From the IMG/VR virus record IMGVR_UViG_3300021399_000007, positions 5,874-69,873 of that record: a DNA stretch of 64,000 bases, one strand, 5' to 3'. The notes under the pieces were generated by a model that was not told where the DNA came from, made no database searches, and saw only the letters and a program-made list of their open reading frames with translations. Shown here one piece after another: positions 1 to 50,680 of this stretch. Both the position numbers and the translations under genes were made by a program. Each line of letters begins with the position of its first letter. Positions within the stretch are counted from its first letter, which is position 1. This DNA comes from a virus.

Positions 1-2
1 TA

Positions 3-1147
3 AGTCATTGGCTTGAAGTAGTAACTTGGAGAAAACAACATTACGAAAAAATTTTATTTAAAGAAGGTATATTTGAAGAAAGAAATGCAGGTTTTCAAAC
101 TAGTGGAGCACCTTCAGCAGACGGAACAAAAGTTTCTTGGCAACCTTCTGAAGAATTTTTTACTCATACTGAAGTTGAAATAAATAAAATTAGAGATTTA
201 TTTAAAACTATTGTTTGTCTTTGTCCTGGGTTAACTATTAATTTAAACAATAATGGAAAAGAAGAGCATTACATTTCAACAAAAGGACTTCATGATCTTA
301 TTGATGAAGCAGTCGGTGATAAAGAAATAATTAATAATAGATTTAGTGTAATATATAATGAACCTCATGGAAAAAATAAATTAGATATTGCATTAACATA
401 TACATCTAACTATTCTTCAACTATTGTTCCTTATGTTAATACTGGCCTAACAGAATCTGGGCCTCATATTACTCAGATTAAAACTATTATTACAAAAGAA
501 TTTAATAAATTCTTTAAAGAAAAGAAATGGTTGAAAGAAAAAGATACTAATTTAACTGGTGATGATATTCAAGAGGGAATGTATGTGGTATTTAATATTA
601 CTGCTCCTAATGTTGGATATGATGCACAGGTCAAAAGTAGAATTACAAAAATTGATATGACGCCATTTACTTCTGCTTTAAGCACAAATCTTGAAATATG
701 GCTAAATAACAATGAAAAAGAAATAAAAAGTATTTTTGAAAAGGCAGTTGCCGCGCGTAAAGCACGAGACGCCGCAAAGAAAGCAAGAGACAAGGCAAGA
801 GAGCAAAATAAAAAGAAACAGAAAGCTCTTAAATTTGATAGTAAACTTGCTGATTGCAATTCAAAGGATAGAAGTAAGTGTGAAATTTATATTACTGAGG
901 GAGATAGTGCATCTGGTAATTTAAAACTTGCTCGTGATAATGAAACACAGGCGGTTATGCCAGTTAGAGGTAAAATTTTAAATACTCAGAAAGCTACTTT
1001 TGCACAAATCCAAAAAAATGCAGAAATTATGACAATGTGCGATGCGTTTTTTGGACCTGGAGATTGGTCTATTGATCCTAAAACTCTCAAGGTAACATAT
1101 CATCAAGTAAGATATGGAAAAATTATTATCATGTCTGATGCCGACGT
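3..1147 (+). CDS. Type II DNA topoisomerase large (ATPase/TOPRIM) subunit, GyrB / T4 gp39-like, exon 1 (5' end lies outside the window)
   Basis: Open frame from the window start. TOPRIM motifs EGDSA and PVRGKILN are present. Homology to GyrB (IIIMSDADV...) stops abruptly at 1147 and resumes at 2205. Confidence 0.8.
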
Positions 1148-2204
1148 CAGTAACACGGCGTATGAAAGACTTTTCGCTTAATCAGGCGGGTAAAAATTTT
1201 TGGTCAACTTTGTATTATGTGATATGTACATTTTTCATATAATATGAAGGAGAAAAGAATTTTTGCTAACGGGGAATCCTAAACCAAATGGCATGGAAAT
1301 CCCGTGGGAAACAAATATTAATTCATTCTCTTTCAATAAATCAATGAAGGAGAATAAAAATGATAGGAATTTATAAAATTACAGAAAGAAATAATCCAAC
1401 AAATTTTTATGTTGGTCAATCAAATGATATAGATAGAAGATTTAAAGAGCATATTTATAAAACATCAAAACAATCACGTATTCCTTTTGATGATTAGATA
1501 ACTAATAAAGGAAAAGATGCTTTTTTATTTGAAGTATTAGAAGTATGTTCTATAGATGAATTAAATGATAAAGAAAAATATTGGATAAATAAATTAAACG
1601 CTATAAAATCTGGCAATAAAAATGAAGGTGGATTAACAGATGTCATAGGCAGTCACAATCCAAAAGCAAAATTAACAGAAGAAGATGTGATTCGAATTAG
1701 ACAAGCTTATGCCAACCATGAGCGCCAAAAAGATGTATATAAAGAATTTGAAAACAAAATTTCTTTTGGTTATTTTCAAAATCTTTGGCAAGGCAGATCT
1801 TGGTCACATGTTATGTCAGAAGTCTTTACGGAAGCGAATAAACAATATTATATTTATCAAAATTCACAGGGTAGTAATGGAGTTTCCGCTCAATTTACTG
1901 ATGAAGAAGTAATTCAACTTCGACATAGATATGTAAATGAAACTGCCAAAAAAATTTATGAAGATTATAAAGATCGAGTATCCTATCAAACATTTCAAGC
2001 TATGCTTTGGGGAAGAAGTTACTCAACGCTTCCTATTTATAAAAAGAAAGAAAAGAAATGGATTAATATTTGAACCTGTATCGACTATTCCCTTTGCCTT
2101 CTGGGCGGGGAAGTAGGACTGCTATTGATACGCAGTTCGAAATGGTCTCCTCTCAATAGAGAGTAAAAGATAGTCAGTGCTTATGGAAACATAAGAATAA
2201 CACG
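1148..2204 (+). mobile_element. Group I (IA-like) self-splicing intron interrupting the topoisomerase gene
   Basis: The exon reading DADV|DGAHI is restored by joining 1147 to 2205. The 5' exon ends in T and the intron ends in G. A T4 td-like core is present (CTAACGGGGAATCC ... GGAAATCCCGTGGG P3/P4/P6-like; GGACTGC...TAGTC P7-like; GNRA hairpin CTTATGGAAACATAAG P9-like). It contains a homing endonuclease ORF. Confidence 0.65.
1369..2073 (+). CDS. Intron-encoded GIY-YIG homing endonuclease (contains one in-frame TAG at ~1495)
   Basis: N-terminal GIYKITE...YVGQS...RFKEH...E..YWI GIY-YIG motifs. The frame continues through TAG into track ORF 1687..2073. Confidence 0.7.
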
Positions 2205-2613
2205 CGATGGAGCACATATTAAAAATCTTTTTTATACATTTATATGGAATTTTTGTCCAGATTTAATTAAAGATGGTTATGTATATGCGGGCGTGCCACC
2301 TCTTTATAAAATCACTCTCGCCGCAAATAAAGGATATAAATATCTTAAAAATGATGAAGCATTAGCTGAATATCAAAAAGAAAACAAAGGAAAGAAATAT
2401 CAAGTTGGACGCATGAAAGGACTCGGTGAGATGAACGTCGAAGAGACGGAAGAAACACTTACAGATCCTAATAATAGAATTATTAAACAAATTAATGTTG
2501 AAGATATTGTGGCAGCTGATAAACTTTTCAATGATTTAATGGGGAACGCAGTTATCCCACGTAAACGTTATATTAAAGAACACAGTTCCGAGGCAACTTA
2601 TAATGCAGAATAA
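2205..2613 (+). CDS. Topoisomerase II large subunit, exon 2 (C-terminal part)
   Basis: DGAHIKNLFYTF...GVPPLYKI...GLGEMN matches the GyrB C-terminal region. It is in frame with track ORF 2293..2613, with no stop back to 2205. Confidence 0.75.
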
Positions 2614-2990
2614 TCGTTTAATTCAAATGAATCAATGGGGTTCATATATCTATGTTGGAAAATATAAAAAAGGTATTTATAGAAATTGGGGAGATTATGC
2701 AGAAGATTTAAATCCTCAAAGTATAGAATAGATTATGAAAAAGTTATATTACTTTGAAGAAAATTTAGAAGCATTATAGGAGGATTTAAATAAAATAAAA
2801 TAAATGAGAAATAATTAGCAAAAATTAATAGATATTATGTTCGAAATTGCATTAATGATTCATAACCATCCATATTTCCAAGATAAAAATAATGAAAAAA
2901 TATGTGAATGGATTAGAGATCAACTAAAACAATGCGGTTTTGAAACTACACCTCTTGGCAGCAGTTGGGGAGTATTAAAGGAGATTAAAA

Positions 2991-5333
2991 ATGCAAAATG
3001 ATTTAACAAAAGAATTAGGTACAAATTTTATAGAATATGCTGTTGCAGTTAATACTGATCGAGCTATCCCTAATGCGAAAGATGGATTAAAGCCTGTTGC
3101 AAAACGAATCTTATGGGGCGCAGAAGATAAAACTAAATGTGTATCAAGTAAACCACATGTAAAAGCAGCTAAACTTGTTGGTGATATTATGGGTACTTAT
3201 CATCCGCATGGTGATAGCTCAATTTATGGTGCTCTTGTACGCCTTTCTCAAAATTGGGTTATGCGTTATCCATTAATTGATTTCCATGGTAATAATGGTA
3301 ATATTATTGGAGATGGCCCTGCACATATGCGTTATACTGAATGTAGATTAAGTAAACTTGCAGAAGATGGGCTTCTTCAAGGAACAAAGAAAAATAATGT
3401 TGATTTCATTCCTAACTATGATGAAACAACAGAGGAGCCAGTATCTCTTCCAAGTATTTTCCCTAATTTACTTTGTAATCCTAATAGCGGTATTGGTGTA
3501 GCTATGGCTTGCTCCTGGGCACCACATAATCTTGGTGAAGTAGCTGCGGCAATTAACCAATATTTATCTGGAGAAGAACCCATGTTGCCTGGTCCAGATT
3601 TTCCAACAGGTGGAATTATTATTAATCAAAAAGAAATTCCTGCAATTATGCGAACTGGACATGGTAGCGTAAAAGTTCGTGGTAAGTTTGAAATTGATAA
3701 GCAAAAAATTATTTTTACAGAAATTCCTTATGGAACATCTGTTGAAGGATTGATGACTGAAATTGGCGAAGTTTCAGATGCAAAGGAAATTGAAGGCATT
3801 GATAATATTCGTGATGAGTCTAATAAAAAAGGTGTTAGAATTGTCATTGAATGCGATAAAGGTATCAATCCTGCAAGTATTGTAAATAAACTTTTTGCAA
3901 AAACAAATTTACAAAGTTCATTTAGCTATAATCAGGTTGCTCTTGTCGATAAAGTGCCAACTGAATTAAATCTTAAAGATTGTATTAAAATCTATGTTGA
4001 CCATAATATTGATTGCATAACAAGAGAAACTAAATTTGATTTAGATAAGGCCATTGATAGACTTGAAATTGTTAATGGTTTACTGCGGGCACTTGAGGAT
4101 ATTGACAACATCATAGCGCTGATTAAAGGCTCCGAAAATGCAATTGCCGCAAAAGAAGCATTAATTAAGAAATATCAGTTCACAGAAAATCAAGCTAAAG
4201 CAATTTTAGCTATGAGACTTTCTTCTCTTGCAAAACTTGAAAAAGTTGAATTAGAGAAAGAAGCCGAAGATTTAAAAAATAAAATTTTTATGCTTAATCA
4301 GATTTTAGATAGTCGAGATGAGCAAATCGGAATTCTTAAAGTGCGACTTCAAGGACTAGTAAATAAATACGGTGACGCTCGTCGTACTGAACTAACTAAT
4401 ATTGAAGTAAAACCAGAAGATAAAATTATTGAGGAAGTTACTCCAGAAGATTGTGTTGTAATTCTTTCTCAAACTGGAGATATTAAACGTATACCTAAAA
4501 ATAGCTTTAAGGTACAACGCAAAAATGGGAAAGGCGTTAAGACAAAAGATGATGTAATTATGTCTACCATCTCTACTAATACTATTGATAATCTTCTTCT
4601 CTTTACTAAAAAAGGAAAAATGTTTAAAATTATCGTAGATGAAGTACCAGTTGGAACAAATGTATCAAAAGGCGTCCATGTTGGAACTTTAATTAATATG
4701 GATCAAGATGATGAAGTGATTGCTATCACTTCTTTGGCAAGAAGTAATACTGCAAAATATGTAGTATTCTTTACTAAACAAGGTTTGATGAAAAAAACTC
4801 TTCTTGATGAATATACAAAAGTGAAACGTAGTACAGGAATTGCCGCCATTAAATTAAACGATGGTGATTCTATTGCCAATGTAGAATTTATGAACGAAGA
4901 AGATATTCTTATTATTACTAAAAATGGAATGTCTATTCATTTTGAAAGCAAAAATGTTAATCCTATTGGTAGAGTTGCGGCAGGCGTTAAAACTATAAAA
5001 TTAGATGACAATGATGAGGTTGTTGTGGGACTTCCAATTCATTCAGACAATGATACTGTTGCTATTTTTTCTACAAAAGGATATGGTAAAAAGACTTCTA
5101 TTAAAGAATTTACAGTTCAGGGTAGAGGCGGAAAAGGTTTGGTAATTTATCGACCAAGTGCGGTATATGGTGAAATTGTAGGTGCGGCAGTTGTATCAGA
5201 TAAAGACGCCATTCTTCTTTCAGGCCAGCCTAATTCTATATGCATTGCCGCAACTGATTTACCATTATTAACTAGAACTAGTTTTGGTAATATCATGATA
5301 AAATCTAATATTTCATCGGTGGTAAAAATATGA
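2991..5333 (+). CDS. Type II DNA topoisomerase subunit A (GyrA/ParC / T4 gp52-like)
   Basis: 780 aa. N-terminal GyrA signature with the catalytic Tyr in AHMRYTE, plus a C-terminal beta-pinwheel-like repeat region. Confidence 0.85.
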   Translation: MQNDLTKELGTNFIEYAVAVNTDRAIPNAKDGLKPVAKRILWGAEDKTKCVSSKPHVKAAKLVGDIMGTYHPHGDSSIYGALVRLSQNWVMRYPLIDFHGNNGNIIGDGPAHMRYTECRLSKLAEDGLLQGTKKNNVDFIPNYDETTEEPVSLPSIFPNLLCNPNSGIGVAMACSWAPHNLGEVAAAINQYLSGEEPMLPGPDFPTGGIIINQKEIPAIMRTGHGSVKVRGKFEIDKQKIIFTEIPYGTSVEGLMTEIGEVSDAKEIEGIDNIRDESNKKGVRIVIECDKGINPASIVNKLFAKTNLQSSFSYNQVALVDKVPTELNLKDCIKIYVDHNIDCITRETKFDLDKAIDRLEIVNGLLRALEDIDNIIALIKGSENAIAAKEALIKKYQFTENQAKAILAMRLSSLAKLEKVELEKEAEDLKNKIFMLNQILDSRDEQIGILKVRLQGLVNKYGDARRTELTNIEVKPEDKIIEEVTPEDCVVILSQTGDIKRIPKNSFKVQRKNGKGVKTKDDVIMSTISTNTIDNLLLFTKKGKMFKIIVDEVPVGTNVSKGVHVGTLINMDQDDEVIAITSLARSNTAKYVVFFTKQGLMKKTLLDEYTKVKRSTGIAAIKLNDGDSIANVEFMNEEDILIITKNGMSIHFESKNVNPIGRVAAGVKTIKLDDNDEVVVGLPIHSDNDTVAIFSTKGYGKKTSIKEFTVQGRGGKGLVIYRPSAVYGEIVGAAVVSDKDAILLSGQPNSICIAATDLPLLTRTSFGNIMIKSNISSVVKI

Positions 5334-5566
5334 GTAAAAATTTTGAAATTATAAATAGAGAAAATATTTATATTGAAGATAAGCCTCAATATATTACTCT
5401 TTTTTATAAGAATAAAGCATATACATTTATAATTGAAAGAACTGGATATAAAGACTTTAATTTTTATTATTCTAGTGATTCAATTCCTGATGATATTACA
5501 AAAAAAGAAATTGAAAATTTTTGTTACAATTATTTTATAAATTATGAAGATTGGAATAAAATATGA
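5330..5566 (+). CDS. hypothetical protein
   Basis: ORF overlapping the upstream stop (ATGA). Confidence 0.4.
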   Translation: MSKNFEIINRENIYIEDKPQYITLFYKNKAYTFIIERTGYKDFNFYYSSDSIPDDITKKEIENFCYNYFINYEDWNKI

Positions 5567-5722
5567 ATAAATTAAATTGTCCTAACTGCGGAGTGCCAAT
5601 CTTCGCAGATAATTATAAAACTTAGTGATGTAAAAAAATAATATTAAATTAATTAGAATATCAATATAAACAATTAGACACTTTAACTATAGATGATTTA
5701 ATAATATAATGGGTGATTTAAT

Positions 5723-7660
5723 ATGACAATGCGTGGAATAATAGATATGCTTAATTATCATACTACATTATATGATAAAGGTAAAAGTGTATGGTCTGAT
5801 AAAGAATGGGATGAATTATATTTTAAACTTCAAAAATTAGAAAAAGAAACTGGTATTATTTATCCAGATTCACCAACTCAAAAAGTTTATTTTGAAAAAG
5901 TTTCTGAATTAAAAAAAGTTAAACATAATCATCCAATGTTGTCTCTTGATAAAACAAAAGATATAGAAGATATCAAATCTTTTATAAAAGGACATGATTG
6001 GGTGGCCATGGCAAAAATGGACGGATTAACTTGTTCATTACATTATGTTGATGGAAAACTGGTTTCCGCAGAGACAAGAGGAAATGGTATAGAAGGAGAA
6101 GATATTACTCATAATGCTTTAATAATTTCATCTATCCCTAATCAAATTAATTATAAAAAAGAATTAATTATTGATGGAGAAATTATTTGTACTTACAAAA
6201 ATTTTGAAAATTTTAACACTGAGTATAAAAATCCACGAAATTTTGCGAGTGGCAGTATTAGACTACTTGATTCAAAAGAATGTGTAAAAAGAAAATTAGA
6301 TTTCATTGCATGGGATGTAATCAAAGGGTTTAATAAAGAGACTTTGACAGAAAATCTTATTGAATTACGGCAGATTGGTTTTACAACAGTTCCATTAACA
6401 ATTAAAAATTTAATAACTCCAGATATTAATTCTGCAATAAATTTTTTAAAGGAACATTGTGAATTAAAGTCATATCCTATTGATGGGATTGTATTTAAAT
6501 ATGATAATGTTAAAGAGTATGAGGCGGCTGGCCGCACAGATCATCATTTTAAGGGCGGCTTAGCGTATAAGTTCTATGATGAAACTTATGAAACTCATTT
6601 AAAATATATCCAATGGACAATGGGAAGAACTGGTGTTCTTACTCCAGTAGCAGTATTTGATCCTATTGATATTGATGGTTCAATAGTAGAAAGAGCAAGT
6701 TTACATAATTTAAGTGTAATGGAAAATATTTTAGGTATTCCTTTTGAAAAACAAAAATTACAGGTTTTTAAAGCAAATATGATTGTTCCGCAAATTTATA
6801 GTGCAGAAAAACCAAAAGAAAAACCTAGTAGTCCTATTATTCCATTAATAGAAAAATGTCCTATTTGCGGTGAAGATGTAGAAATTATTAACAATAATGG
6901 TGTAAAAATTATTGTATGTACTAATCCCTCATGCCAGGGGAAATTTATTAATATACTTGAGCATTTTTGTGGGAAAAAGGGTCTTGATATTAAAGGATTA
7001 TCTAAAGCTACTTTTCAAAAGTTAATTGATTGGGGATGGCTTGAAAATCTTGAAGGAGTTTTTAATCTTAATCAATATAGAAATGAATGGATTAAAAAGC
7101 CTGGTTTTGGAATAACTTCTGTAGATAAAATCTTAAAATCAATAGAAGAGCATAGACATACAACACTTGATGCCTTTATATCTGCGATTGGTATCCCCCT
7201 TATAGGGCGGGCAGTAGCAAAAGATTTAATTAATTATTTTGAAACTTATGAAGATTTTCGTAATGCAATTGATGATGATAAATATGATTTTTCCATATTA
7301 GATAATTTTGGAGAAGAAATGAATAAAAGTATTAAAAATTTTGATTATGCGGAAGCTGACAGAATTTCTAAACTTTTAATTTTTGAAACTCCTGTTGTTA
7401 ACAACGTTCAAATAAATAATAGTCTTACAGGAAAAACTATAGTTATTACGGGAAAACTTACTACATTTAAAAATAGAGCTGAATTAAAAGCTGTTATTGA
7501 ATCTCATGGTGGAAAGGTATCAGATTCTATTTCTGGCAAGACTGATTTATTAATTAACAATGATGTAAATAGCACATCATCTAAAAACAAAGCTGCGAAG
7601 GCACGCAATATACCTATTGTTTCAGAACTAGATTTTATAAAGCAATATATTGAAAACTAA
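5723..7660 (+). CDS. ligA: NAD+-dependent DNA ligase (LigA-type)
   Basis: KMDGLT adenylation motif, a Cys4 zinc finger (CPICGE...CTNPSCQG), HhH region and a C-terminal BRCT-like domain. 645 aa. Confidence 0.85.
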   Translation: MTMRGIIDMLNYHTTLYDKGKSVWSDKEWDELYFKLQKLEKETGIIYPDSPTQKVYFEKVSELKKVKHNHPMLSLDKTKDIEDIKSFIKGHDWVAMAKMDGLTCSLHYVDGKLVSAETRGNGIEGEDITHNALIISSIPNQINYKKELIIDGEIICTYKNFENFNTEYKNPRNFASGSIRLLDSKECVKRKLDFIAWDVIKGFNKETLTENLIELRQIGFTTVPLTIKNLITPDINSAINFLKEHCELKSYPIDGIVFKYDNVKEYEAAGRTDHHFKGGLAYKFYDETYETHLKYIQWTMGRTGVLTPVAVFDPIDIDGSIVERASLHNLSVMENILGIPFEKQKLQVFKANMIVPQIYSAEKPKEKPSSPIIPLIEKCPICGEDVEIINNNGVKIIVCTNPSCQGKFINILEHFCGKKGLDIKGLSKATFQKLIDWGWLENLEGVFNLNQYRNEWIKKPGFGITSVDKILKSIEEHRHTTLDAFISAIGIPLIGRAVAKDLINYFETYEDFRNAIDDDKYDFSILDNFGEEMNKSIKNFDYAEADRISKLLIFETPVVNNVQINNSLTGKTIVITGKLTTFKNRAELKAVIESHGGKVSDSISGKTDLLINNDVNSTSSKNKAAKARNIPIVSELDFIKQYIEN

Positions 7661-8169: not shown

Positions 8170-8231
8170 TCTTAATTATATTGTGAGGGTTAGATAAAAT
8201 TTATCTAACCCTCTTTTATATTGGAGAAAAA

Positions 8232-8822
8232 ATGTTATTTATAATATTAAGTTTTATTTTTTTAATATTTGGTTTAATTCTTTTTTACAAAGCCAATCAA
8301 ATAAAAATTAATAAAAATGAATAGCAAGAAAAATATAAACAAATATTAAAAAATCAAATTACTCAATTAAAAATTGAGATTGATGCTTTAAAGCAATCTC
8401 AATTTAAAAAACAAAAAGAAATTGATTAGTAGTTAATACAATGGCAGGCTAATCGTAAAAAAGAAATTGAAGTATATATAGAAAGTCAAAAACAATTAGC
8501 TGATCAAACTGTAAATACAGTATATGAATCTGCCCAAAAGCAAATTTCAGATATTAATAATGATATTCAAAGTACTCGTAATATAGCATTGCAAGAAAAA
8601 AAATAGATACAAACTGAAATTAATAAATTAAAAGCCTCATTAAGTGCGGGTGTTGAAGCTCGTCTCCGCGAACAATAGAAAAAAGATAAAATTAATTTTT
8701 ATAAACTTTCTATTTCTGAAGCAGATTTAGCTGATGTAAAAATGCTATAGAATTTAAAATCTTCTTTTCATAAACCTGTTGTTTTAAGTAAACTTATATG
8801 GACTCAATATTTCCAAAAACAA
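8232..8822 (+). CDS. Membrane-anchored coiled-coil protein with 6 in-frame TAG codons (possibly fused to the downstream endonuclease frame)
   Basis: ATG at 8232, an N-terminal hydrophobic helix, and a Q/K-rich coiled coil. TAGs include a tandem TAGTAG. The same frame continues into 8823 with no TAA or TGA. Confidence 0.4.
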
Positions 8823-9149
8823 ATGACAGAATTATGTGATAGAATTTTAGGAAAAAAGACTGTTTGTGGCATTTATAAAATTACTAATTTATTAACAGAA
8901 CAATGTTATATTGGTCAAAGTGTTAATATTAGTGATAGATGGAAGCAACATTGTAAATGCGGTTTAGGTATTGAAGCATCCGCAACAAATGTTTTATATA
9001 ATGCCATGCAAAAAAATGGAGTATGGAATTTTAGTTTTGAATTATTAGAATAGTGTTCAAAAGATCAATTAAATGAAAAAGAAAGATTTTGGATATAGAT
9101 GTATCAAAGTAATAAATTTGGTTTAAATACTACAAAGGGGAATTTATAA
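8823..9149 (+). CDS. Free-standing GIY-YIG homing endonuclease (2 in-frame TAG)
   Basis: GIYKITN...YIGQS...RWKQH...FELLE(TAG)CS..NEKERFWI(TAG)MYQ parallels the intron HEG segment LEVCS..NDKEKYWINKL residue for residue, with TAG at sense positions. Ends at TAA 9147-9149. Confidence 0.6.
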
Positions 9150-34934: not shown

Positions 34935-35702
34935 TTACTAAATAGATTTTATTGTTTCTCCAATTGTTTCATTAGCGATATTTTGTAATGTTTGTTTTAA
35001 ACTTACATTTATTGAACGCTATGCTTCTTTATTTTCTTTTTTCTTTTTAATTAAATATTCTTGAATAGCCTAGAAATTGTTTAATTTATTATTAATAATT
35101 TCTTGTGCCATATTAAATAATTGTTCAATACTTAATGTAGTAGCTTGATTTGATTTTACTGCCATCTACATATTATTAATAGTAGTATCACCTTCTAAAG
35201 TACCTGATAAGTTTGTTACTTTCATTACATAACTCATAAATTGTTCCATATTATCTTCTGGCACATTGGTATGAATAAAATGTTCATGTAATAATAAAGT
35301 CGCATAAGCTTCATTTATGCTACCGAAAGAAGAAACCAAAACGCCATTCCATTTTTGTCCACTATATGGATAAAGCCATAAAATATATGCTCCGCCATTA
35401 GATCTTTTATATTTATTAAATCTCTAATATGCTGTATTATATGTAGATTTTAACGAGGAATAATTAAAATTTTTAGTGTCCTATTGTATAGATTGTTCAA
35501 TTTTTGTAGCATGCTCTCGTAACATTTTTGCATTATTTCTATATCTAACAATTACATTACCATATCTATCTACATCAACTTTTAAAAAATCTGACATATT
35601 ATTAATTACATAAGTTTCTGGAACTCCTTTAGATCCAACCCATACATATGTTGTAGCAACTATTTGTCCCAATGCAGCATTTAAATATTCTTGAAATTTC
35701 AT
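34935..35702 (-). CDS. hypothetical late protein with several in-frame TAG
   Basis: Track ORF 35481..35702 continues in the same frame through about 5 TAG codons to TAA at ~34935. Confidence 0.4.
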
Positions 35703-35753
35703 TGCTAACTAATAAGTTTCTAAAATCCCTTTTTTTATTTCCTAAGAAAAATT

Positions 35754-36065
35754 CTATTTTCGAATTCTTAATCTCTCTTTTAAATAGATATCATATTCTG
35801 TAGTGTCTTTATAGGCTGCACCATTAGCTTTACAATTTGCTTTAAAACTATGCCAAGCTTTTATAGTTCGTTTTAATGCTGTCTCAAAATTAGAAATTTG
35901 CTTTATCATTATTTGATATTTTTCTATAAACTTTGATGCAGTTTGTATAATAATTTTATAGCTCTTTTGAACTTCCTGCGCTTCAACAGAGGTTGATGCA
36001 TTTAAAATAATTTTAGTATTAACATCTAATTCATTTTTATCAAATTGAATATCTACTTGTGACAT
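35754..36065 (-). CDS. hypothetical protein
   Basis: ORF preceded by a terminator hairpin AGGGAGGGTTAATTATAATCCTCCCT at ~36085-36115. Confidence 0.4.
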   Translation of the reverse strand: MSQVDIQFDKNELDVNTKIILNASTSVEAQEVQKSYKIIIQTASKFIEKYQIMIKQISNFETALKRTIKAWHSFKANCKANGAAYKDTTEYDIYLKERLRIRK

Positions 36066-36140
36066 ATTTATTTATTCCTTTATAATAAAAAATAGGGAGG
36101 ATTATAATTAACCCTCCCTATTCTATTTTTATTTAATTAA

Positions 36141-37190: not shown

Positions 37191-38557
37191 TTATTTTGAA
37201 TCATCTTCATAGATGTCTTTTAACCAGTCTTCAGGATCCTACATACCAGTTGCCCCAGCAACTTTAAATCGTTCCCAAGTGTCATAATGCAATTTTAATT
37301 CAAACCGATTAAATTCATCCATCAATTGATAAACAGTATAATTCATTAAATCATTTATATTTTTTTGCTATCCAACAGCAAGAATAGATATATATCGACT
37401 TAAAATAGAGATTTTTGTTTTTGGCGCCAGCTTCGCCCTTTTTTCTTGACCTCTTTTAAGTTTATTTGCAATTTTTTGTGATAAACTTCCACTTGGATTA
37501 TACTATTTATTCTTTTCATTCTTTAGGCAAAATATATCAATTAAAATCTATTTAAAATTATCAAAATTTTTTTCATCAATTTTAGACACATCATTAGTCT
37601 ATGGATTTCGTAATTGTATTGCCTAAAGTTCCAACCTAATTTCATAAGTTGGAAACAACAAAGCGAGAATAGATAAAACATTTAATCTAGCCTATTGAGA
37701 TTCTAAATTTTTTTCTCGTATCATTGTCATTATTATATTAAAATTTGACAAGTTCGATAAATCAATTTTGTCCTAAGTGAAAAAGACATCTTTATTAAAA
37801 TTTAATAATTCGCATCCAGGCCAAAACCGTGACTATGTAATATAAGCAATTTCTTTTAATCGCGGCTGATGAATTGTAATTCTAGCTTCTGGAAATGGAA
37901 TATCATTTCCCGATAATAAAAGTAATTCATCAATCATTTTTTATTAATCCATCCATCATAATTAGGCATTTTATCATGCTAACTTGGTAATACATCATCC
38001 GTACCATGAACAGCAGAATAAGTTAACGTATAACCAGAAAGAGTTTCATCAAGTACGAGCTAATTACAACCTGTAAATTGGAAAGTTCCAAGCCCAGATA
38101 ACCGCGCATTATTAAGAATCCCATCAATATATCCACAAATTTTTAATGGCCTAACTCTAAAATTACCAAGATCCCAACAATCAGTGTGACATAATACATC
38201 AATATAAACATTGCAATCTCTAAATTGTGGATTTGTTATAGTTGGTTTAAAATTATCAAAAGAAAAAATTAAATAACTTTTAACTTCCTAATGCTAAGAC
38301 ATCATAATTTTTGGTTCAAATTTTATATATCCTAGCTATCTTAATTTAGCCAAACTCATATCTTTAATCGCATTTTGATAAATAACACTGTTTGTATCTA
38401 AACAATCTTTTGTATTAATAACTAGTAATTTTTTTAATTCATTACTATAAGGTTGACTTTCTATAAACAATTTTCGTAAAATTGTTTCTAAATCTTTTTC
38501 ACATGATAAAAAAGATGAAGTAAAATCAACTGGTCTTAAAATTAAATCTCTTTTCAT
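37191..38557 (-). other. TAG-dense late coding region (at least 2 genes); frames only partly resolved by eye
   Basis: No ORF of 60 aa or more in any frame. A minus-strand frame downstream of 38336..38557 reads protein-like sequence (LGYIKFEPKIMMSQHQEV...HSHGFG...) with TAG about every 20-40 codons and real TAA TAA TGA stops at ~37725. A separate ~109 aa frame with 2 TAG ends at TAA 37191. Confidence 0.35.
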
Positions 38558-45948: not shown

Positions 45949-48074
45949 TCATAATTTATTCTTGCTTCATCCCAATAGGGAATGATTACTAAATTGATCC
46001 CATGATCTCGACAATATTCTCTTTTTTTCATATCGTTGTATTGTTGTTTTCTTAAACCATTATATCCACCAAATTTTTCTTTAGCTTCATAATGTTGAAT
46101 TCCTTGAAATTCAATGAGAAAATCAATATTATGCTAATCGTCGAAAACCGCAAAATCAAATCTTAGCGGGCGGCCTGTATTACTTACTAAATCTGGAAAA
46201 GAGTATTCTTCTGCGAACTCTAATCCAGACTCTTGTAGAATTTCTTCTATTTTAATTTCTCCTCTAGATGCTCGCATATTTTTTCTCCTTCACTATATTA
46301 TATAAAAATTTTATCTATAAAATTAATAAACTTTGACCTTAAGCTGGAGTAAAAAATAAAAAGTCAGAAATATTACGTTTTTTCTTCTTTTTATTTAATT
46401 CCTATTCATAACGAATATAATATAATCCATATATAAAAGCAGAAAATTTATCTTTCTTAATACTTCTATTGCTCTGTTTCAGAATAATATTAACTCCCTA
46501 ATTTTCTTCTACAAGATTTAACATTTGTTCTTTCAAAATCGAGGTTAATATAAAAGGTCGTAAATAATCATTTCTTTCATCAATATTCATATTTTGACCT
46601 TGTTTAGTTGACATTAATTTAGTTTTTGCCAAGCCTTCATCAATTAAAAATCTAATCTTCCCACTAAACATCTGAGTTTGTGCATAACTATATGCCTATG
46701 TATTTATAGGCGCATTAGCTTTAATTAAAAACAAAATATCCCGCTCTGTCTCAGGAGTAACAAATTTTTTATATTCTGGATATTCATCTGTATTATAAAC
46801 ACCAAAAGGAGGTAAATATTCACCATCATCTGTATCTTGCGCTTTAACTAAATAATCAATAAGCCCAACTCCTAGACCATTAGCATCAACTGCAATTCTA
46901 CGCGGCCTATATTTATAATACAAATGTTTTATATGAATACATTGAGTTTCAAAGTGTTCTGCATCATAAGTATAAATATTTACAAGAGTCTTATGAGCTG
47001 CCCCTTGAACTTGCGGCGTAACTTTAAAAACACAAATCTCTGTAGTACATCCCACACGTCCAACGTCTATACCAAATACATAATAAGCATTTTTTGAAGA
47101 CCGCCCGCTATATTCATACTATGGTTGTAATAATACTCTGTATTTATCAAATTTTTCAGAAGAAAAGAATGCATTTTCAACATCGCCAGACCAAATACTA
47201 CGATATTCTCTATTGAATGATTCATCATTAAAAGTCCCTTGTAATCTTAATTGCTATACAAAATCTTCATCCAATAGACCAGAAATCACAGGTGTTTCAT
47301 AAGTTCCGCCCATAATCATATATTCTTCTGGATCAATGATAGAATTAATTAAAATTTCAATTAATTTGTGATAAGCAAAACTATTTTTCCATCCCGCTGT
47401 GGTTATATAAATTTGTGATTTATTAACATTCTCCTCTTTGTGGCGGCTACCATCTGAAAGTCTTCTATCAACGTTTGTAGTAGGAATAATAACTTCATTT
47501 AGAATATCACCATCAATTAATACGCACTCTTCCATTAATCCACCAGTACGACGTTGACCTCTAGATGACTGCCTCGCCGCTAAGATATCAATAGTAGAGC
47601 CATTCTTAAATACATATTTAACGTTATCTTTTGATTTAGTAGATACACCGCGATCCCAGTTAATTTCATTATTTAAACCAGGTATGAGTTTACATATTTC
47701 CTAAATTTTAGCAATAGTAATAGAAGCTGCCTGCTCCTTTCCGCCTGTAGTTACAAATAAATGTGAATTAGGATATAAAATGCATCTAATCATTAATGCC
47801 ATCATTGATAAAAAAGACTTAGAATATGCGCGCGGGAATGTTGCGTACACATACCGGTGCCGCATCACAATTCTAAGAAAAATTCTTTGATAAAATAAAA
47901 AATTAAATGTGCTATCTTTTCCTTTTATAAAATCCACAAAAATATCAGGATATTCCCTAAAATAAGCAATTAAATCTCTTAATCCATCTATGTCTTTCAA
48001 TAGCCGCTATTCTGATAAACCTTGTTTTTTATACTATCTGTCGGAGGATAACTGAAGTAATTCTTTTAAATTCA
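45949..48074 (-). CDS. Terminase large subunit with multiple in-frame TAG (track fragments 47701..48000, 47254..47535, 46696..47055)
   Basis: Start MNLKELLQLSSDR(TAG)YKKQGLSE(TAG)RLLKDIDGLRD... at ~48074. One minus-strand frame carries the three fragments, separated only by TAG. Deviant Walker-A-like PRAYSKSF. TGA stop at ~45949. Confidence 0.55.
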
Positions 48075-49409
48075 TTCGTGTTTAAGCCTCCTATTTATGT
48101 ATTCTTCTTCAATTAAATCATCATTTAAGTCATCATCATGATCTTTCATGTGATTTAAGGATTTTTTATAATTAGTAAAATCATCATCATCTAATTCCAC
48201 ATTATCTAATCCTTTAGCTTTTGCATCTTTTTTATCTTTTTTCATTTCATTTGAAATGCGTTTATCTTGCAAATATTTTTCAATTTCTTGCGCTAATGAT
48301 TTATCTTCATAAATTAAGTTTTTATTATATGCTTTTAAATCTAAAATAATTTGATCAACAATATCTTGCGGCTAATTGCAATGATAACGTGGAATTTCTC
48401 CGCTATGAGCCTCAACAAAATCAACAATAGCAGAAGCAGAATCAATTGTATCAGCATCTTTATCTTTATTCTGCGCCTATGTAAATTTTGCGGACTTCAT
48501 CATAGCATCATAGACACGCGATAATTTCTGGTAAGAATCGATGTCGCCGCAATCAATAGCCTCATTCATTTTGAGGGATGTCTTGCAAATCATTTTTAAT
48601 GTATCAATACGTGCCGCCCCTTGAATATCAAATGAATTCATAAATTCATTATATAATTGTTCAAGAGCAACCCACTGACTGGGTTTATAAAGTCGGCCCC
48701 ATTTAACCGCAAGATACATTTTATCATCATCATCTAAATTCGCGCCAGGATCAACTATTTCGCTTTCCGCCATAAAATTTTGTTCTCTAAATGGATTTTT
48801 TGCTTGATTAAGCGCCTAGGCGTATGACTATGGTTGACCGTAAACCTGGAATATTTGGCCTAAATGTTCTCCTGTAATAGCATCCCCCCACCGCGGTAAT
48901 TCCTTATTTTGAGTTTCTGTGCTAACAAGAGTCTGATACTAGGCGGGGGATATTTTTCCTTCGCTCAATTTAACTTTTAACGAGGCCTAATACCGCGCCT
49001 TCTCTTCTGCTTCGGCCTTTTCTTTTTTAGCCTTTTCCGCGTCCATTTCTTCTTGAATTTTTTTGGTATCCGCATATCCATATTTGCTCCATTGTTTGAG
49101 CTTCATTTTAGCAAGATATTTACCAATAACAGACATTCCATTCATTTTATAAGGGTCTTTCGCAAACGCCTTATCTCTTAATACATTCCATTCAGTAGGA
49201 ATATAAGGAACATCCATTTTTTCAAGAATCCATTCAAAAGTACTAGGATCAAAATTATCTATATGCGCGGTTAAGCATGGTTTGCAAATTTCGCATTTAC
49301 TGCCATCTTTATATGTATAAAAATTTATTTGTGCAATTCTTTTGCCACACCGCTCGCATTGACATTTACCATTTGCGTCTTCTTGCTGTCCTTTTAATTT
49401 TTGCGCCAT
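48072..49409 (-). CDS. Zn-ribbon protein, possible small terminase subunit; about 7 in-frame TAG
   Basis: Track ORFs 48987..49409, 48477..48773 and 48072..48272 are in one minus frame, joined only by TAG. N-terminal CxxC...CxxC. Immediately upstream of the large terminase with an overlapping stop/start. Confidence 0.35.
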
Positions 49410-49444: not shown

Positions 49445-50562
49445 AATTCTTTAATGAATTAAAGACTTTTGTCCTTTTTCTTATTTCTACAACATTTACA
49501 AATACTATACCAACCATCCTTTGAAGTTCTATTTCTTGTAAAAAAATAAGGATGAGCAAGTTTTACCTAATGACAGCGCGAACATTTTTTCCATTTTCCT
49601 TTTTCTTCTATTGTATAATGCCAAATTATCCAATCTTCTTTTGCTTTTTCAGAAATAATTTTTGGGATTTTTTTCCGCCACACTGAAGATAAATATTCAA
49701 TAGAATAAGTGATATTATATTTATTTTTTATCTTTTCCGCAATTTCTTTATTTTGAAGTCCATCTATTTTATAAATCATAATATCATATAAAATAGGATA
49801 ATCATCTTTCAATGCTTTTTCTATAAGATTATCTAGATCCTCCATTAAGTACCACCAATCATCGTCAAAATGGCCCCAAACGTCTTCTTTTAATTTAGAA
49901 TAATTACACAATAGACAACAAACATGCTATGGATTAAATAGTGATACTAAACAGTTACTTTCTGGGTCAAAATTTTCATTTATTTTTATTTTTTCATTTA
50001 AATTTATTTGATTAGCGCTTTTGGTTATCCGCATCATAGTAATGGGCGGTTTGTAGATACTTTTTAATACATATTGATCTTGTCTAGCTTCAATTAATTG
50101 TTTTGTAAGTAAGAATTTTTGTTTTCCCTTAGCCGCCTTTTGCCGCGCCTCTATTTTTTTAATTTCTTCTCTTAATTCTTTTAATCCTGGTATAGTTATT
50201 ATATCTTCTTCTGTGATTTGTATTTTTGGAACTAATAAAATGTTTTTATCGCCGCCAGTCATAAAGTTATAAATGCCATCCTCGCCATTCTATAACTTGG
50301 AAACTAGACCTTCATAGGAGATTTCTCTTTTGTTGATAGTTACCATCCTATTGTCTGTTAAGACTTTCCGCTCTTTTTTATTATCATAAGTTTCTGTTAA
50401 GTATTTTGTAAGCTATTCTAAATAATAAGGAGTAAGTTTTTCTGAGGGAATATTATTAACAATTTCATGTACTATTTTATTACGCTATTGAGGGTCAATA
50501 ATAGTATAGTCCAAGGTGGGATAAGGTCTTTTAGACTACATATTTTTTAACTCTTTTTCCAT
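49445..50562 (-). CDS. Late-operon leader protein with a sigma-70 region-4-like HTH (candidate late transcription regulator / sigma-like factor), about 6 in-frame TAG
   Basis: RBS GCAGAAAGGAG and ATG at ~50562. One frame joins track ORFs 49927..50262 and 49567..49911 through TAGs. DIMIYKIDGLQNKEIAEKIKNKYNITYSIEYLSSVWRKKIPKI resembles sigma region 4. C-terminal Cys cluster (CSRCH..CKCC). Confidence 0.4.
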
Positions 50563-50680
50563 GAAATACTCCTTTCTGCTAATTCATTAATTACATTATA
50601 CCAAAAAAATTTTCAAAAGTCAAACGCGGCAATTGGATATTTTTATTGATTTTTATTAAAAAATATTTTATAATATAATT

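Follow-up and report, generated by a model that had tools for sequence, protein, structure and literature searches.

A td-like group I intron with a TAG-containing GIY-YIG endonuclease frame, predicted within a gyrB-like gene of a recoded phage

The window analysed here is a stretch of 64,000 nucleotides (nt) from IMG/VR virus record IMGVR_UViG_3300021399_000007 (positions 5,874 to 69,873 of that record), and all positions below count from its first letter. Near its start lies a gene for a GyrB/ParE-like type IIA topoisomerase subunit, which is truncated at its 5' end by the start of the window and interrupted by an insert at 1148-2204. A first-pass annotation had read this insert as a group I intron with a GIY-YIG homing endonuclease. 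Translation confirmed the break in homology that it placed at 1147: exon 1 runs ...YGKIIIMSDADV up to T1147 and its frame ends in ...IIIMSDADV, with the GT of the Val codon at 1146-1147. The resumption of homology at 2205 was correctly positioned, with one refinement at codon level. The Val codon is split as GT/C (the slash marks a splice or insertion point), so that C2205 supplies its third base and the Asp codon of DGAHI (DGAHIKNLFYTF...) begins at 2206. Joining 3-1147 to 2205-2613 gives a single GyrB-like reading frame, and the spliced product contains the Pfam domains DNA_gyraseB, Toprim and DNA_gyraseB_C. Alignment with S. aureus GyrB (PDB 2xco, E 9e-56) is gap-free over the junction, where kiiimsDADVDGAHIknl in the window corresponds to kivimtDADVDGAHIrtl in the S. 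aureus protein. The insertion is in phase 2 of the Val codon in the DADVDG motif of Toprim. T4 gp39/gp60 match the spliced product only at E ~1e-12 in the PDB comparison. The label of topoisomerase II large subunit given in the first pass holds in the sense of a type IIA B-subunit, and by these alignments the interrupted gene is closer to bacterial GyrB/ParE than to T4 gp39. The 1057-nt length of the insert, U1147 at the end of the 5' exon and G2204 (omega-G) at the end of the intron were all found as described. C1148 and C2205 are the identical base, and only 1147/1148 together with 2204/2205 put a U ahead of the intron and make G its last base; the boundaries are unique under group I rules because any other placement breaks the U/G rule.

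If left unspliced, the exon 1 frame would continue into SNTAYERLFA and reach TAA at 1179-1181, 11 codons into the insert. This early stop is what would be expected of a gene split in the manner of T4 39/60 with mobA, in which the insert would be a free-standing cassette and the halves, ...DADVSNTAYERLFA and the part downstream of 2205, would be translated separately and then assemble. There are precedents for such an arrangement in the T4 topoisomerase gene and in Aeh1 nrdA, both split by mob endonucleases. The second half, however, offers no place to begin translation: the exon 2 frame has no ATG, GTG or TTG from the stop at 2164 to a GTG at 2293, a position already 29 codons into conserved sequence. 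An intein was ruled out, since the TAA at 1179-1181 closes the exon 1 frame soon after it enters the insert and the only domain in the insert is the GIY-YIG domain, in another frame context.

The non-coding flanks of the intron, about 340 nt, form a ribozyme fold whose pairings covary among relatives. From 5' to 3' the elements at the upstream end are the paired segment P1, AUGAA, the P3 5' strand, UUU, a 5-base-pair (bp) hairpin at 1175-1188, a long hairpin at 1190-1266, UAA and P4. P1 has the U1147-G1158 wobble at the 5' splice site. The long, P3.2-like hairpin is a 77-nt insertion and is unusual. An alternative in which the hairpin 1175-1188 is P1 or P2, with P3 beside the joining segment J3/4, was ruled out by the covariation, which puts the P3 5' strand upstream. 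Neither a P2 between P1 and P3 nor P9.1/P9.2 helices were seen in the intron. P7.1 and P7.2, the additional helices that characterize subgroup IA, are present. The segment 2137-2176 resembles the consensus AGAUAUAGUC of the Rfam group I intron model RF00028. P9.0 covaries in relatives when judged by eye (GUA/UAC, GGU/ACU and GCG/CGU). The endonuclease open reading frame (ORF) lies inside the loop closed by P6a, and a natural ORF-less copy at the same site (L012; comparison loci are cited by L numbers) retains P6a with a short loop. Coordinates are collected in Table 1.

Table 1. Elements of the interrupted gene, the predicted intron and its endonuclease frame, with examples of TAG-bearing frames elsewhere in the window.
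Feature	Positions	Strand	Description	Basis
Exon 1, GyrB/ParE-like type IIA topoisomerase subunit	3-1147	+		Translation; Pfam DNA_gyraseB and Toprim (spliced product); PDB GyrB alignment
Group I intron	1148-2204	+	1057 nt; td-like (IA type, P7.1/P7.2)	Exon homology; U(-1)/omega-G rule; family covariation; match to covariance model R1
P1	1144-1161	+	ACGU/C (1144-1148) pairs with GGCGU (1157-1161); loop AGUAACAC	Read from sequence
P3 5' strand	1167-1171	+	AGACU, pairs with GGUCU 2144-2148, about 970 nt apart	Covariation
Two hairpins between P3 5' strand and J3/4	1175-1266	+	P3.1-like, 1175-1179 with 1184-1188; long P3.2-like, G1190-C1266	Covariation
J3/4 to P6 5' strand	1267-1308	+	J3/4 (UAA); P4 (1269-1274 with 1300-1305); J4/5; P5 (1277-1279 with 1295-1297); P5a; P6 5' strand GGG (1306-1308)	td match; P5 and P6 covary
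P6a 5' strand	1313-1326	+	14 bp with 2058-2071; closes the loop holding the endonuclease ORF	Read from sequence
Shine-Dalgarno-burying hairpin	1325-1355	+	AUUCUCUUUCA (1325-1335) pairs with UGAAGGAGAAU (1345-1355)	Minimum-free-energy fold
GIY-YIG homing endonuclease ORF	1360-2073	+	237 codons; stop TGA	Pfam; PHROG; PDB; family homologues
P6 3' strand to P7 5' strand	2075-2087	+	P6 3' strand CCU (2075-2077); J6/7; P7 5' strand (U2081, bulged C2082, GACUA 2083-2087)	Covariation
P7.1 and P7.2	2088-2136	+	P7.1, 2088-2092 with 2108-2112, internal extension; P7.2, 2118-2122 with 2132-2136	All pairs covary; aligned to td by model R1
J7.2/3 to P7 3' strand	2137-2176	+	J7.2/3 UCGAAAU; P3 3' strand 2144-2148; P8, 2150-2154 with 2159-2163; J8/7 UAAAAGA; P7 3' strand UAGUC + A (2171-2176)	
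P9.0, P9 and omega-G	2177-2204	+	P9.0, GUG 2177-2179 with CAC 2201-2203; P9 hairpin 2180-2195 with GAAA loop; omega-G 2204	Sequence; P9 in model R1
Exon 2	2205-2613	+	(V)DGAHIKNLFYTF...PPLYK...KGLGEM...; stop TAA 2611-2613	
TAG-bearing frame	8187-9149	+		
TAG-bearing frame	34935-36071	-		
TAG-bearing frame	37191-37940	-		
TAG-bearing frame	46339-48081	-		
TAG-bearing frame	49459-50583	-		

Relatives of the insert were collected by blastn with 11-base words and then with 3' core and 5' core patterns over IMG/VR. The blastn search returned unannotated relatives in the Enterococcus phages EF1, EF5 and VRE9_3, while megablast of window positions 1-6000 against GenBank phages gave no match. Twenty IMG/VR loci carry the 3' core pattern, and the 5' core pattern CTAACGGGGAA...AATCCCGTGG occurs at more than 119 IMG/VR phage loci among the matches listed. 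Homologous endonuclease ORFs occur across the family, and most members have a GIY-YIG ORF in the same loop; 16 are without a full-length endonuclease ORF there, some of them retaining a remnant. GenBank phage records also contain family members that are not annotated as such, at L001 (VRE9_3, PP680569.1, 1701-3300) and L002 (EF5). The VRE9_3 intron appears to split the large terminase, with a phrog_15503 half followed by a coding sequence named 'homing endonuclease'. Several group I introns lie in tandem or close by at L070 (1579-2225) and at several places in L081, and some of them score above the RF00028 gathering threshold; one at L070 1998-2225 reaches 87.8 bits and adjoins a member of the window-intron family.

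Covariation was measured on an alignment headed by the window and comprising 68 distinct members. Invariant strings served as anchors, the interiors of variable hairpins were replaced by N, and MAFFT left the 199 columns as they were. The alignment excludes 12 members in which the J8/7 anchor was mis-set or an additional hairpin follows P7.2. The specified structure is paired in 93.8% of 3736 cells, compared with 71.3% in shuffles (none of 500 reached it) and 40-46% when partners were slid by 1-3 columns. The covariation score was 0.592 vs 0.155 for this alignment. The long-range P3 is paired in 93% of cells, and five of its six pairs have changed on both sides (for example AU27 CG18 GC14 UA8). 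The P3.1-like and P3.2-like hairpins are 97% and 93% paired, respectively, with four of five and five of seven pairs covarying. The P7 pair across the bulge is 100% paired as UA49/GC11/AU8, the third pair of P6 is GC60/CG7, every pair of P7.1, P7.2 and P8 covaries, and P5 and P6 covary where they are variable. Read from the alignment, these helices yield a group I topology with the P3/P7 pseudoknot plus the P7.1/P7.2 typical of subgroup IA.

The core was also compared with that of T4 td, which was located through a 5' sequence of the td intron; this matched T4-type phages at 100%, and locus L134 contains the 1016-nt td intron with I-TevI. A plain pairwise alignment to td was structurally poor, and a covariance model was used instead. 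This model, R1, used the 3' halves of 29 members of the family, all from other genes or insertion sites and none from the window's site. It matched the window at 2075-2199 with 108.9 bits (E 5.5e-23), its sole match in the 64 kb, and matched the td 3' core (L134 2165-2271) over the full model with 42.7 bits (E 1.1e-7). The first-pass label 'td-like' is justified because R1 matches both the window and the td core. The strings agree as well. Window and td share CUAACGGGGAA...AAUCCCGUG and CGACUAU..GUAGG..UCGAAA..AGAUAGUC, and the td core strings CUAAACGGGGAA...AAUCCCGUG, CGACUAUCCC...GGGGAGUAGG, UCGAAA and AGAU(AU)AGUC are all present in the window.

Several observations nevertheless weigh against the intron reading. 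The alignment was anchor-built with the structure in mind, and the P8 register was picked for each sequence among four offsets, which favours pairing there. The search patterns fixed P4 and the five core pairs of P7, which are thus invariant and can give no information on covariation. P1 is short, at 5 bp. The check proposed in the first pass, RF00028 on 1100-2250, turned out negative: there was no match in the whole window at the gathering threshold (50 bits), no group I match in 1000-2400 at E<=10, and none in the ORF-less L012 or in L007. Compact relatives in other genes do match RF00028 over the whole model, with 32-38 bits and E of 1e-4 to 2e-8, namely L070 1579-1832 (38.2 bits; E 3e-6, or 2e-8 when searched alone), L081 9031-9265 (36.3 bits) and L038 4665-4895 (32.1 bits), yet all of these fall below the gathering score. 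The printed alignment located the misfit at P3. RF00028 probably misses the intron because the P3 5' strand sits upstream of the P3.1/P3.2-like hairpins and there is no P2. Rfam alone would have led to a wrong rejection of the intron.

The negative Rfam result, the short P1 and the unusual 77-nt P3.2 insertion could also be taken as signs of a degenerate intron that does not self-splice, leaving the gene inactivated or dependent on a host or phage factor. The window departs from the family consensus, however, only at positions that are still paired. Near-identical copies are found on the independent contigs L008, L018 and L021, and there is no further damage in the gyrB-like gene or in the GyrA-like ORF downstream (2991-5333). 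We therefore regard a degenerate intron as very unlikely.

A protein-guided scan for related gyrB-like genes returned 80, of which 77 are uninterrupted at the GAYGCNGAYGTNGAYGG site; the empty-site alleles L135-L141 share 97-98% protein identity with the window's spliced product. On these comparisons the intron is a presence/absence polymorphism, because 77 of the 80 related genes are uninterrupted, some at 97-98% identity. Related intron-endonuclease units are inserted at four places, each no more than 12 nt from the DADVDG codons: GCT/GAT (L004-L006), GT/C (the window, L008, L010-L012, L016-L018 and L021), GTT/GAT (L015) and GGT/GCA (L003 and L009). The guide sequence complements the exon at every site, with GGCGU, GGC, GACG, GCCG and GCCC being used. 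All sister introns with a junction that could be placed by protein homology end in G and restore the frame. Intron alleles at the window's site all have GACGT/C and empty alleles mostly have GATGTN, a difference that fits either P1 constraints or co-conversion. A further family intron is found in the same gene at EG/DSA of Toprim (L041, L103 and L105); the equivalent place in the window, around 897-911, is uninterrupted.

These results also bear on the split gene introduced above. The non-coding flanks form a covarying ribozyme fold, the ORF-less L012 retains the RNA at the same site, and a guide sequence matched to the exon would have no role. Together with the lack of a start codon for exon 2, this makes separately translated halves exceedingly improbable.

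The ORF in the P6a loop matches Pfam GIY-YIG (PF01541) with 38.4 bits against a cut-off of 22.6 (E 1.5e-9) and a PHROG homing endonuclease, in agreement with the first-pass assignment. Its best PDB match is the catalytic domain of I-TevI (1mk0/1ln0), and the equivalents of Arg27 and Glu75, the catalytic Arg and Glu mutated in those structures, are kept. No similarity to the I-TevI DNA-binding domain was detected in the C-terminal half by Pfam or PDB comparison. Upstream of the ORF, the predicted hairpin that would bury the Shine-Dalgarno sequence has 11 bp and a z-score of only -1.3; an equivalent hairpin of different sequence was seen by eye in L009 and L017. The ORF contains one in-frame TAG, at 1495-1497 as the first pass had noted, and is intact only if this codon is decoded, as suggested by the sense TAGs elsewhere in the window.

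TAG is abundant in the genes of this phage. Twenty-five long open frames in the window carry 1-9 in-frame TAGs, including eight in the large terminase and six in the sigma factor, and reading TAG as sense lengthens many ORFs. PHROG matches run across the TAGs in the large terminase, the sigma factor and a virion protein, while the genes for DNA ligase, Sak4, DnaB and DNA polymerase and the gyrB/gyrA-like genes are TAG-free. From these frames, TAG is a sense codon throughout the phage, which thus resembles phages using genetic code 15. In relatives' endonucleases a TAG often stands at the conserved Q of YIGQ(S/T), and L021 has a TAG where the window has Gln; because of this placement and exchange, the alignments suggest that TAG encodes Gln. 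The apparent recoding of the endonuclease therefore follows from the genetic code of the phage and is not special to the intron. A second GIY-YIG ORF lies at 8187-9149; the domain is C-terminal, the matches are to PHROG homing endonuclease families, eight TAGs are in frame, and the N-terminal half resembles a membrane or coiled-coil region. Small ORFs that are open only with TAG as sense (2603-2803, with two TAGs) are found at 2603-3001, between the gyrB-like gene and its gyrA-like neighbour. Relatives of these were sought for the amino acid at TAG and were uninformative, because the region is not conserved among close relatives.

If translation really ended at the TAG at 1495, the intron would be real but its endonuclease a pseudogene: only a 45-residue fragment would be made, and the intron could splice without being mobile any longer. 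Two observations count against decoding at this codon: relatives without the TAG have Tyr (TAT/TAC) at this position, not Gln, and Tyr codons are one mutation from TAG; and no suppressor transfer RNA (tRNA), nor any tRNA, was found in the window. Decay of endonucleases is common, and L012 has lost its ORF altogether. Against a pseudogene, the 192 codons after the TAG stay open in DNA of 31% guanine plus cytosine, L018 and L021 share this TAG and have intact ORFs beyond it, and TAG is used as sense in so many other frames of the window. We judge a pseudogene to be quite unlikely.

Taken together, 1148-2204 is very probably a mobile T4-td-type group I intron in the DADV/DG of a phage GyrB/ParE-like gene. 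We infer its splicing and homing because the junction is exact, the fold covaries, the core is similar to td, empty alleles exist, the guide tracks the exon and exon 2 is without a start codon. The first-pass proposal of a group I intron with a GIY-YIG endonuclease in a topoisomerase gene is upheld to that extent. In the proposed mechanism, the precursor messenger RNA would fold into P1-P9, with GGCGU (1157-1161) pairing with the exon end ACGU/C through the U1147-G1158 wobble. An external guanosine bound in P7 would attack after U1147, and the freed exon would then attack after omega-G 2204, giving GACGT/CGATGG and an intact subunit B. The endonuclease expressed from the P6a loop would cut intron-less alleles of the same gene in co-infection, and repair would copy the intron in; the empty sites of L135-L141 are candidate substrates. 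It would be made only when the TAG is decoded, probably as Gln, as elsewhere in the phage; the TAG and the sequestered ribosome-binding site would likely limit its synthesis.

A more far-reaching interpretation is possible, though we hold it only tentatively. The family may represent a distinct IA subclass, with P3.1/P3.2 hairpins downstream of the P3 5' strand taking the place of P2; the staggered sites may be a natural site-hopping series with re-tuned guides; and the TAG and the buried ribosome-binding site may act as a double timer that delays the endonuclease to late infection. If true, a distinct subclass would explain why RF00028 misses the intron despite the abundance of the family in gut and rumen-type phage metagenomes.

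Gene callers would annotate two gyrB fragments and a truncated endonuclease here, where the correct products would be one GyrB-like protein and one 237-residue endonuclease with TAG read as sense. The paired intron-plus and intron-minus alleles and the four staggered sites can be used for studying site moves and the re-tuning of guides. The first-pass statement that introns in phage topoisomerase genes are known but uncommon found no support: a literature search returned no report of introns in gyrase or topoisomerase genes of phages. Despite this silence, such introns are many in the metagenomic record. The window intron is real, yet an ordinary representative of a large, abundant T4-td-like phage intron family.

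Introns with related properties are known from other phage groups. In Agate phages, stop-codon-recoded gut phages, a recoded group I intron endonuclease lies in an early gene, and the recoded stop was proposed to keep the endonuclease from being made before late infection (Borges et al., bioRxiv 10.1101/2021.08.26.457843). The Agate and window endonuclease ORFs both carry in frame a stop codon that their phage has reassigned. They differ in that TGA is Trp in Agate, where the gene family is preferentially recoded, whereas the window has a single TAG in a TAG-recoded phage. The first pass had called the recoded endonuclease notable; the TAG is there, but it is sense phage-wide and a recoded intron endonuclease had already been published. 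The window would provide a second example of an intron endonuclease with a reassigned stop codon and bears on the proposal that recoding times late expression. In intron-rich gut phages such as Jug phages, essential genes are interrupted by numerous group I introns that come with GIY-YIG or HNH endonucleases, and metatranscriptomes confirmed splicing for about half of those predicted in that study (PMC12363816). These are a different phage group; the introns described there are mostly ~206 nt and were found by subgroup models, and no split gyrB was reported.

The T4 gene 39/60 locus shares with the window a mobile endonuclease element in a phage type II topoisomerase gene. The T4 gene is split with mobA and has a 50-nt translational bypass, not an intron; gene splitting and ribosome hopping there stand against predicted RNA splicing in the window. 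The bypass gap presumably comes right after the ...DADHDG codons, and in part on this assumption the comparison suggests that the DADVDG-type motif is a hot spot for homing endonucleases. The Toprim motif of type IIA topoisomerases would join the homing sites of phage introns, beside the T4 mobA/bypass cassette.

A close parallel is T4 td. In both td and the window, P7.1/P7.2 stand between P7 and the P3 3' strand and a GIY-YIG endonuclease ORF lies inside the P6a loop. The window's predicted hairpin over the endonuclease ribosome-binding site is likewise comparable to td/I-TevI, which also sequesters this site in a hairpin. The differences are in the host gene (gyrB-like in the window, thymidylate synthase for td), in the P9.1/P9.2 helices, which td has and the window does not, and in the in-frame TAG of the window ORF, probably read as sense, which I-TevI lacks. 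The 5' half differs too. The order in td and Twort is P1, P2, P3, J3/4, P4, and the td sequence is consistent with this; in the window, P2 before P3 is missing and two P3.1/P3.2-like hairpins follow the P3 5' strand. The window intron thus has the P7.1/P7.2 of subgroup IA2 (T4 td and Twort) without its P2 between P1 and P3. This arrangement is probably not unprecedented, because P3.1 is listed among the optional pairings of group I introns (PMC3873408). The introns of Enterococcus phages EF1, EF5 and VRE9_3 belong to the same family as the window intron and have a GIY-YIG ORF in the same loop, but differ from it in lying in other genes, in their short P3.2 and in using the standard genetic code.

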